Origin: a virus
Taxonomy: Duplodnaviria; Caudoviricetes
DNA: 64,000 nucleotides
IMG/VR virus record: IMGVR_UViG_3300046786_000774
Span: 6,903-70,902 of that record
Direction: 5' to 3' (one strand)
Part shown: positions 4,831 through 36,867 of the stretch, in pieces
How the letters are laid out: each line of letters begins with the position of its first letter
Position numbering within the stretch: the first letter of the stretch is position 1
The notes under the pieces: model-generated
What the model was told of the DNA's origin: nothing
Database searches by the model: none
Seen by the model: only the letters and a program-made list of their open reading frames with translations
Position numbers and translations under genes: made by a program

Positions 4831-5481
4831 CAGAGGACGGATGAGAGGTTGACCAATCCTTGCAACCCTCTCGAACTCCTTGACATCAAGCTCCTGAACC
4901 TGGAAGGTTGGAACTGGACCTGGGTCACTCGATTCAATCGAGGTGTCCCTTTCTCCAATTTCATTCACGAGGTGCGGATTCATGATCGCCAATCCCCTTC
5001 CAACAGGGCTGCAATCAATCCTTTCCTCGTTTGGAAGGCATACATGCTGCATCCCAAGGGAATGACCAATCTCGTGCATCAAGGCAGTCCTGAACTCAAG
5101 ATTGCCCTGTGTGCATGTTGGGTCAATGAAAATCTTCGACTCCCCCCTTGGAGTCATGTCGTATCTTGCAGCCCCAAGGACAGAGCAGTCCCCAGGATGA
5201 CCTCTGGTCAAGTCAGAGCTCACGACCTCGATGGAGTTGACACCCTCTCCTCCAAGTACAAACCTTGGACCAAGTCTGTTAAGCTCCTGGAGAGCTTCCT
5301 GGGCTTGTTCCCTTTGGTGCTGGGTAAAGTTCTCCGAGAGGTGAACGTGTACCTCTCCCCACTTCTGCCAGTTGTGATGGTTTGGTCGTCGAAAGACGAT
5401 GGCTGGGATGGTGACCATCAAAACAGCAAGTACGGCAAAAACCACACCCAGGATGACATTTCGTTTTGTTGAGGCTTCCAT
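4792..5481 (-). CDS. membrane-anchored zincin metallopeptidase (matrixin/M10-like)
   Basis: HEIGHSLGMQH (HExxHxxGxxH) followed by Met-turn AIMNP; N-terminal TM; AGGAG SD at ATG 5481. Confidence 0.8.
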   Translation of the reverse strand: MEASTKRNVILGVVFAVLAVLMVTIPAIVFRRPNHHNWQKWGEVHVHLSENFTQHQREQAQEALQELNRLGPRFVLGGEGVNSIEVVSSDLTRGHPGDCSVLGAARYDMTPRGESKIFIDPTCTQGNLEFRTALMHEIGHSLGMQHVCLPNEERIDCSPVGRGLAIMNPHLVNEIGERDTSIESSDPGPVPTFQVQELDVKEFERVARIGQPLIRPLSLPRALVDGGRD

Positions 5482-35757: not shown

Positions 35758-36072
35758 TCAGAACTCAGAGTCCTGGCACTTGCAAGAGTTGCAACAGTGG
35801 ACGGTCTTCTCTTTGCGTCGGTACTTGATCAACTTTTCCCGGTAACGTCTGTTGCACTCCACGGTGCCGTCTTTCTTGCATACATCACAGCGCAAGTCTT
35901 CCTCAAGACCGCAGTGCTTGCACTTCCGCCAGTAGAACTCGGGATCATAGATCCCAAAGAAGTCCTCCGAGCAGTAGATGTTGGGCTCCACATCCTCCCA
36001 GGAGTGAAACCCACAAGCGCAGAGAGCTCGTCGGAAGATGGAAGGCTTCGGTTGATTGGTTTGTTCGGCCAT
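35758..36072 (-). CDS. Cys-rich hypothetical protein
   Basis: LCACGFHSW, CKHCG, CDVC; start ATG 36072. Confidence 0.6.
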   Translation of the reverse strand: MAEQTNQPKPSIFRRALCACGFHSWEDVEPNIYCSEDFFGIYDPEFYWRKCKHCGLEEDLRCDVCKKDGTVECNRRYREKLIKYRRKEKTVHCCNSCKCQDSEF

Positions 36073-36086
36073 GGTACTCTTTCTTG

Positions 36087-36134
36087 TGGTCGCCTTTCCA
36101 AGAATCGAACTCGGATATCGTGCCAACAAAGGCG
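36087..36134 (-). ncRNA. armless tRNA-like element (acceptor stem + T-arm + A-CCA, 48 nt)
   Basis: CGCCTTT / AAAGGCG 7-bp stem, 13-nt linker, CCGAG-TTCGATT-CTTGG T-arm, discriminator A, CCA. Confidence 0.65.
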
Positions 36135-36476
36135 AATGGGGTTGTTGCTGATTGAATCCGTCCATGCTCGGCCCCTTGCGAGAATTAGACTTTCCTGGAC
36201 CTTTAGGCGTGACCGAGTTGGTCGATCCAAGTGGGATCATTTACTTCAACACCACTTGGTCCCATAAAGGGTGGTGTCAGAGCTTCTGTTTTCAGGAGAA
36301 CCAGCGCCCGAAGCAACGCTGGACATTCCATTTAGACAGGCAAGGCTTCTACTCCATTAGGCTTTGCGGGTGGGTTTCTACAAAGTTCCGGGCGATGAGT
36401 TTAGGCACTTTGGCCTTCTAGACAGGCATTGGGACGGCGTTTCCTTCTTAGCTCTCAGTTGGTCGTTGCTGCCACA
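36087..36476 (-). ncRNA. candidate ~390-nt structured ncRNA
   Basis: longest stretch without a convincing ORF; own promoter; several hairpins incl. cUUCGg; ends in tRNA-like element. Confidence 0.45.
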
Positions 36477-36481
36477 CCCAC

Positions 36482-36509
36482 CATTTAACCAGCCCCCTCT
36501 TGTCGTCAA
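36482..36509 (-). promoter_or_regulatory. sigma70-like promoter TTGACG-N16-TAAATG
   Basis: same TTGAC...TGGTTAA layout as promoters at 1438 and upstream of the HD hydrolase. Confidence 0.45.
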
Positions 36510-36519
36510 CACCCTTCGT

Positions 36520-36867
36520 TCATTTTGGCGAAAGGAACACGTCGTAGGAGTGTTGGTTCCCTCTGGTTGCCGTGACGAAGTACAGATCGCCAAGCAACGC
36601 CTGGATCAGGTCGACCGTAGGGAGCTTGGTCTCCTTGATGATCCCGACCGAGAGGAACTCCACCAGGGAGCTCCGCTTGTTGAGCCCGATCACGAAGGTG
36701 CCTCGCCAGTATTCCGGGTTGAACTTCAGGGAGTGGTAATCCAGCTCGCAAGCTGTAACCCTGGAGAACCAAAAGGTATCTGCCGTGTGATCAGCGTACG
36801 AGACGTACGGCTGCGTCAACACCAAAAACGGCATTCGGGCCTTGATTGCTTCAAGAGAGTCTACCAT
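36520..36867 (-). CDS. hypothetical protein
   Basis: 115 aa. Confidence 0.65.
   Translation of the reverse strand: MVDSLEAIKARMPFLVLTQPYVSYADHTADTFWFSRVTACELDYHSLKFNPEYWRGTFVIGLNKRSSLVEFLSVGIIKETKLPTVDLIQALLGDLYFVTATRGNQHSYDVFLSPK

Follow-up and report, generated by a model that had tools for sequence, protein, structure and literature searches.

The window, by which we mean the whole stretch of 64,000 nucleotides of viral DNA that was analysed, is part of a 70.9-kb IMG/VR virus record with a completeness of 20% (CheckV). The contigs of close relatives reach 298 kb, so the source is an uncultured jumbo phage. The DNA and RNA runs that contain this stretch originate from wastewater, activated sludge and freshwater; among cultured phages neither a DNA match to the 3-kb locus nor a match to its DUF6011 protein was found. 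The genes near the RNA described here lie on the minus strand, and the locus is arranged as follows.

37921-36851, minus strand: DUF6011 protein gene, upstream neighbour of the RNA
36867-36520, minus strand: gene for a 115-aa protein, upstream neighbour of the RNA
36482..36509, minus strand: promoter-like element with -35 TTGACG (36509-36504), a 16-nt variable spacer and -10 TAAATG (36487-36482)
36462..36483, minus strand: invariant 5' segment UGGUGGGUGUGGCAGCAACGAC, including the 5' strand of a possible closing helix P1 (36483-36477) and a possible PK1 strand AGCAACG (36470-36464)
36331..36416, minus strand: optional 86-nt block between copies of the 10-nt direct repeat TGCCTGTCTA
36135..36159, minus strand: 3' tail with CAACCCCAU, able to form P1 with the 5' strand or PK2 with the GGGG of the P5 loop
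36087..36134, minus strand: tRNA-like minihelix with acceptor CGCCUUU/AAAGGCG, a 13-nt linker, the T-arm CCGAG-UUCGAUU-CUUGG, discriminator A and CCA
35758..36072, minus strand: gene for a 104-aa Cys-rich protein, downstream of the RNA and first ORF of the operon headed by it, with substitutions at third codon positions from 36072

Past the 104-aa gene there are several small ORFs and then an RNA ligase, at most 31% identical to those of huge uncultured phages and Caulobacter phages. Ten neighbouring proteins compared with Pfam, PHROGs and the protein atlas gave no clue to the function of the RNA, their sole matches being DUF6011, the RNA ligase and a GIY-YIG endonuclease 2.3 kb off; for the 104-aa Cys-rich protein no family was found in Pfam or PHROG.

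The gap between 36073 and 36519, whose RNA lies on the minus strand, is interrupted by stops in all six frames with the exception of two ORFs, one of 89 aa on the plus strand (36152-36421) and the other formed if the downstream gene is prolonged upstream as far as 36240. In a simple ranking of gaps by their ORFs, spurious frames filled this one. All three kinds of stop remain in each frame under alternative stop-codon readings. Codon positions were compared with L002, a 95% identical relative that served as the reference. The substitutions in the plus-strand ORF and in the extended 160-aa ORF fell mostly on codon positions 1 and 2, and both candidates were rejected; in the true downstream gene (start 36072) they fell on codon position 3. 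The homologs also carry one- and two-nt indels within the RNA region. The sequence-only reading had placed a structured non-coding RNA here rather than a protein gene, and both the indels and the codon-position pattern indeed oppose a conserved coding frame.

The gap differs from L002 by 10 substitutions in 447 nt, lower per site than the flanking coding DNA, and the next gene differs by about 17% at third codon positions. In four other relatives (L012, L018, L004 and L007) the RNA core is 80-89% identical, while the DUF6011, 115-aa and downstream genes of the same relatives are 64-72% identical as DNA and 50-70% as protein. Judged by these sequence comparisons, the RNA is the best-conserved part of the locus and is evidently under purifying selection.

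The alignment of the core comprised eight sequences (the window, L002, L049, L012, L018, L004, L007 and L050) representing about five independent lineages; more distant relatives were found via the flanking proteins. One of the eight, L004, is the 198.7-kb contig SSEG01000007.1 of GCA_008012165.1, deposited as a Spirochaetes MAG. Its gene order (J-domain protein, methyltransferase, DUF6011, RNA, small genes) is the same as that of the phage, and it is probably a jumbo-phage contig mis-binned in the MAG. As far as the collections show, the RNA family is so far confined to a few uncultured giant phages of wastewater and freshwater, a narrow distribution within what was searched.

RNAalifold applied to the homologs yielded five internal helices, P2, P3, P4, P5a and P5b:

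36294..36330, minus strand: P2 hairpin, stem 36322-36315/36308-36301, loop GCUUCG
36329-36327 with 36297-36295, minus strand: outer extension of P2, GGA with UCC
36243..36283, minus strand: P3 hairpin, 36283-36271/36255-36243, with a 15-nt loop containing the invariant UGGGAYCAA
36194..36231, minus strand: P4 helix, ACUUGGAU(C) at 36231-36224 with (G)GUCCAGG at 36201-36194
36223-36202, minus strand: variable insert of P4, containing a GACC/GGUC hairpin
36160..36190, minus strand: P5 domain, composed of P5a, P5b and a G-rich loop
36190-36187 with 36163-36160, minus strand: P5a, GUCU/GGAC, with the compensatory change U-A>C-G
36182-36178 with 36172-36167, minus strand: P5b, CUCGC/G.CGAG, with the compensatory change C-G>G-C

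Across the eight sequences 95.5% of the helix cells pair. Ten pairs are changed on both sides as compared with 3.8 in column shuffles, and ten were reached in none of the 500 shuffles, a control that is not to be read as a probability; the set holds only about five independent lineages. When the partners were slid by 1-3 columns, 0-2 pairs changed on both sides were found. Each of the five helices has at least one compensatory pair. There are three in P2 (A-U>G-C, C-G>U-A and G-C>A-U) and two in P3 (A-U>G-C and C-G>U-A), in which 100% of the cells pair. The two in P4 (G-C>A-U and A-U>U-G) both come from L049, and L004, L007 and L049 lack 15 nt of the P4 insert. Conserved G-U pairs in P3 and P4 would become A-C mismatches on the opposite strand, which places the RNA on the minus strand. 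The folding energy of the single sequence was not better than that of shuffles (z = 0.85) and was not significant for either strand; the case for structure therefore rests on comparison between sequences.

Part of this fold had been anticipated from one sequence. The CCAGCG/CGCTGG hairpin and the stem GACACCAC/GTGGTGTT are present, and compensatory changes support the pairing of both. The proposed GATCC/GGATC hairpin is not conserved, and its sequence is taken up by the conserved P4 (ACUUGGAU/GUCCAGG); the GACC/GGTC hairpin does exist but lies in the variable insert within P4. The alternative pairing CCAAGTGG/CCACTTGG, which had been put forward as a switch or pseudoknot, is present in the window but is broken in L007 by a change that P3 compensates. 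Written as RNA, the GAUCC/GGAUC hairpin was rejected together with the proposed switch, CCAAGUGG/CCACUUGG, as the homologs gave neither any support.

The Rfam 15 families covered in our searches included RNase P, tmRNA, 6S, GOLLD, ROOL, raiA, Y RNA/YrlA, riboswitches, group I/II introns and self-cleaving ribozymes. No match was obtained for the whole window at gathering thresholds or for six homologous or syntenic loci, and no relevant match for 35900-36700 at E up to 10. Thus RNase P, tmRNA, 6S, GOLLD, ROOL and raiA, the classes singled out for checking at the outset, were searched and none matched. ARAGORN at default settings called neither a tRNA nor a tmRNA. The faint resemblance to RNase P RNA that had been noticed in short segments does not hold: an RNase P RNA should carry CR-I (GGAAAGUC...) and CR-V (ACAGAA...) in the correct order, forming P4, and here no Rfam match was found and ACAGAA (36289-36284) precedes GGAAAGUC (36195-36188), in reversed order. 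ACAGAA itself is not conserved, being AGUGAA or AUAGAA in homologs, and there is no RNase P P4 complementarity. A guide or template RNA (retron/DRT, omega/reRNA, CRISPR) was also considered and rejected, there being no adjacent reverse transcriptase, TnpB/IscB or Cas and only two 10-nt repeats.

With nhmmer and the covariance model R1 of the core no new member was found in 29 sources (262 kb), including 25 distant DUF6011 loci. Pattern scans of IMG/VR returned only the close relative; of the scans of JGI metagenomes one gave nothing and the other a single chance match in an unrelated context (L020), and a scan of GTDB genomes gave nothing. We found no description of such a phage RNA in the literature. 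Taken together, covariation, conservation above that of the flanking genes and the lack of an Rfam match bear out the view of an unclassified structured non-coding RNA, and the comparative data confirm that a conserved phage RNA, belonging to a family not described before, does exist in the gap.

The TTGACG-N16-TAAATG promoter proposed at the start of the gap was found, and both hexamers are invariant in every homolog with the spacer variable. They are kept even in L010, a related locus that is without the RNA, and L012 and L018 match the promoter block at 100% of its positions. The layout TTGAC-N14-GGTTARAT recurs at the distant locus L017, and near-copies precede other minus-strand genes (6 matches against 2.06 expected). 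Three near-copies with two mismatches each, at 38035-38009, 44167-44141 and 13486-13460 on the minus strand, sit in short gaps 5' of minus-strand genes. This layout may represent an early-promoter type of this phage. A generic sigma-70 scan misses the element because the final T is absent from its -10 hexamer. The conservation of the motif and the recurrence of its layout fit a promoter from which transcription would start near G36475.

No minus-strand terminator was found between the RNA and the 104-aa gene, so the RNA heads the transcript of a small-gene operon. The earlier picture of a stand-alone gene with its own promoter has accordingly been replaced by that of the first element of an operon transcript. 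At L010 (3386-3752) the identical promoter and the first ~20 transcribed bases are followed by a 107-aa ORF of no known family that replaces the RNA; the gene for the Cys-rich protein comes next, as in the window.

The ends of the RNA are less clearly defined than its core. The 5' segment is identical throughout, save that L007/L050 have a single G>A, for which a C>U in the P1 partner compensates. A 7-bp closing helix P1 is possible in all sequences, joining UGGUGGG (36483-36477) to CCCAUYN (36140-36134); its 5' strand overlaps the -10 element, and a start near 36475 would exclude that strand from the transcript. Two pseudoknots offer another arrangement: in PK1 the 5' AGCAA(CG) would pair with the P2 loop, one pair being changed on both sides and the outer pair being broken in L049, and in PK2 the 3' CCCC would pair with the GGGG of the P5 loop. 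Every sequence allows the 3' tail to form either P1 or PK2, and each of these pairings has one covarying position. PK1 and PK2 have only one covarying pair each, a number of both-side changes that 94 of the 500 shuffles equalled. It is thus possible, from the alignment, that the ends are held together either by P1 or by PK1 and PK2.

Two parts of the locus are modular. The first is the 86-nt block, which is present in the window, L002, L049 and L012 and absent from L018, L004, L007 and L050; L018, without it, is otherwise near-identical to L012. As the block is optional, the RNA measures about 345 nt here, whereas the short forms reach about 245-270 nt. In wastewater, a metatranscriptome contig (run X15, a window-like strain) joins 36330 to 36417 and so skips the block, which indicates that closely related strains with and without it occur side by side in nature. 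The 10-nt direct repeat TGCCTGTCTA was confirmed at 36428-36419 and 36342-36333. On the minus strand it reads in all lineages as a three-codon frame, (A/U)UG-CCU-GU(C/U)-stop. The stop is UAG, UAA or UGA, GUC>GUU is a synonymous change, and AAGGAA ahead of the frame is invariant; this frame may be a minigene or leader peptide, or a coincidence.

Metatranscriptome contigs cover the RNA, in run X17 only at 36188-36387 and in run X15 together with the flanks. Such contigs show neither ends, strand nor level, and neither their uncovered parts nor the contig ends at 36446, an assembly branch at the block boundary, are informative about transcript ends; we regard the contigs as a weak hint of expression.

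The second modular part is the tRNA-like minihelix. Its acceptor has 7 bp (8 bp if U-1:A73 is included) and its T-stem 5 bp, with the T-loop UUCGAUU. It begins one nucleotide past the final nucleotide of the P1/tail region (36135), and 14 nt separate its end from the AUG at 36072. No other such element occurs in the 64 kb, and in shuffled controls a T-arm with a 7-bp acceptor and NCCA arose in 6 of 200 cases; ARAGORN does not call it. The acceptor is coaxial with a T-arm bearing a canonical T-loop, and the position is at the boundary of the RNA, as in elements of the t-element and mascRNA type. Thus a tRNA mimic does exist 3' of the RNA as the sequence-only reading described it, but it is lineage-specific and not part of the conserved RNA, as it was found in only three of the eight sequences (the window, L002 and L049). 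L049 retains the T-loop; a T-stem G.U has become A-U there, the linker has shortened to 8 nt and the tail reads CCG. The retention of the T-loop and of T-stem pairing under a changing linker length suggests that the minihelix is under selection. L012, L018, L004, L007 and L050 all have the RNA without the minihelix, and in the first four of them the RNA tail runs directly to a short unrelated spacer and then to the next gene. The element therefore cannot be the general route by which the 3' end of the RNA is made.

Distant relatives carry different tRNA-like RNAs at the same position, 3' of the DUF6011 gene:

L017:4325-4489: tRNA-like RNA
L022 ~4984-5142: tRNA-like RNA
L014:3717-3875: tRNA-like RNA
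L014:4370-4567: tRNA-like RNA

These have a perfect 7-bp acceptor, a D-arm, a canonical T-arm and mostly an NCCA end, with 78-102 nt at the site of the anticodon loop. When introns were allowed, ARAGORN called the L014 tRNA-Thr(UGU), with a 102-nt insert, at the default threshold and the others only at 80%. The insert hairpins in L017 and L022 show compensatory changes. This genomic slot may be a hotspot for RNAs that mimic tRNA.

To our minds there is about an even chance that the RNA is a trans-acting phage RNA cut from the operon transcript. Minus-strand transcription from the conserved sigma-70-like promoter would yield the RNA as the first element of the small-gene operon, with a compact core (P2, P3, P4, P5a and P5b) lying behind an A/C-rich single-stranded 5' arm. 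After excision the RNA would act in trans, probably as a protein-binding or decoy RNA early in infection. In the lineage of the window the minihelix appears to be an insertion placed precisely where the RNA ends, ahead of the ribosome-binding site from which the next gene is translated. Bacterial RNase P cuts acceptor/T-arm minihelices bearing an RCCA tail, and in this lineage the host enzyme would probably cut between U36135 and C36134, which would set the 3' end of the RNA and free the downstream message. From one lineage to another, the segment separating the RNA from the next start codon varies in both length and sequence. A separable trans RNA is favoured over an obligatory cis-regulator by three observations: the occupation of the RNA slot in L010 by a protein gene, the lack of a conserved expression platform and the tolerance of a 48-nt insertion before the ribosome-binding site.

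The main competing explanation, which we consider unlikely, is a cis-acting 5' leader, that is, a riboswitch, protein-binding operator or mRNA stabiliser that stays part of the message and governs how long it lasts or how it is translated. The RNA does follow the promoter and precede the first ORF, from which no terminator separates it; its size and closed multi-helix shape recall large riboswitch aptamers, and the alternative pairings of the 3' tail (P1/PK2) and of the 5' segment (PK1/P2) could serve as a switch. However, the spacers of 24-65 nt from RNA to start codon are unrelated among the lineages and contain no conserved expression platform, L010 combines the same promoter and downstream gene without any RNA, and no riboswitch match was obtained in Rfam. 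In the lineage of the window, moreover, a 48-nt probable cleavage signal is inserted between the RNA and the ribosome-binding site, and in L049 the outer pair of PK1 is lost although P2 shows a compensatory change.

It is quite improbable that the conserved stretch acts through tiny ORFs, chiefly the (A/U)UG-CCU-GU(C/U)-stop minigene or leader peptide. The occurrence of this mini-frame in all lineages with three different stops, the synonymous GUC>GUU, the AUG or UUG start and the invariant AAGGAA ahead would suit such a role, but the events are few and the spacing from AAGGAA to the start is irregular (4-13 nt). The longer frames are not conserved, being disrupted by one- and two-nt indels and, in L012, by a stop, and the conserved covarying helices downstream would be left without explanation.

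A tmRNA-like or chargeable tRNA-like RNA, with aminoacylation of its acceptor/T-arm end and a tag encoded by an internal frame, is scarcely credible. In its favour are the similar size, the acceptor stem, T-arm and ACCA end, a frame after UGG that is open to a stop in homologs, and a tmRNA called by ARAGORN at 80% (36427-36091, tag DPTWIDQLGHA*). The same program was silent at default, 95, 90 and 85%, and at 80% it made 19 calls in the window, which marks that call as noise. The acceptor pairs C1-G72, G2-C71 and C3-G70 do not include G3:U70, and the 5' strand of the acceptor lies 13 nt from the T-arm and not at the 5' end of the RNA. The tags would end in GHA, GHV, RKA or RNA, unlike tmRNA tags with their hydrophobic ...AA-type tail, and the Rfam tmRNA models found nothing; the absence of the tRNA-like end from five of the eight homologs largely refutes this explanation. 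Just as doubtful is a DNA-level element (an origin of replication or a site of packaging or recombination) or a slow-evolving spacer without RNA function, since, although direct repeats with a promoter are typical of some phage origins and single-sequence folding is unremarkable, the compensatory Watson-Crick and G-U pairs work on one strand only, conservation is far above that of the neighbouring genes and the region occurs in RNA libraries.

To return to the RNA released to act in trans, it is possible, and we suggest it only tentatively, that it represents a new phage RNA class, a swappable cargo of an early operon that works as a decoy or as part of a ribonucleoprotein in host takeover or counter-defence and is released by RNase P in one lineage. 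To our knowledge, few structured RNAs of phages are understood, and environmental giant phages are almost unexplored for RNA genes. As the most conserved element of its locus, with a fold supported by comparison and no described family, the present RNA is a clean candidate for a new functional RNA. Nature also supplies variants for experiments in the form of the optional block, the optional cutting signal and the protein gene that replaces the RNA in a sister phage. If RNase P does cut the minihelix, then phages use tRNA-shaped punctuation to carve RNAs from operon transcripts, a device that we know so far mainly from organelles and mammalian long non-coding RNAs.

Among known systems the large RNAs GOLLD and ROOL are also phage-borne, structured and adjoin tRNA-type elements; our RNA is much smaller, its core is not tRNA-like and the Rfam 15 models of these families give nothing. 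The stable RNAs species 1 and 2 of T4 (rnaC, rnaD) are presumably comparable as structured stable phage RNAs near tRNA-type elements. With tmRNA it shares a length of ~350 nt, an acceptor/T-arm end with CCA and an A-rich single strand followed by several hairpins. Synthetic acceptor/T-arm minihelices are minimal substrates for RNase P, the CCA-adding enzyme and synthetases; like them, the phage element has a 7-bp acceptor on a 5-bp T-stem, the loop UUCGAUU with G53-C61, discriminator A, CCA and U-1, but it is natural, lies within an operon transcript, has C1-G72 and no G3:U70, and ends in CCG in L049.

The closest parallels are found where tRNA-shaped elements define RNA ends. Such t-elements define mRNA ends in plant mitochondria (PMC1920247), and in MALAT1/mascRNA and NEAT1/menRNA a tRNA-shaped element 3' of a longer RNA is cut by tRNA-processing enzymes, which defines the ends (PMC8457004). 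The phage minihelix similarly lies directly after the predicted 3' end of the RNA and before an mRNA; in contrast to MALAT1/mascRNA and the t-elements, it belongs to a bacterial virus, has no D-arm or anticodon arm and is found in one sub-lineage, and its cleavage is predicted. Processing of the MALAT1/mascRNA kind is a reasonable analogy for this lineage only and, if true, would make the element a bacterial-virus counterpart of MALAT1/mascRNA and the mitochondrial t-elements.
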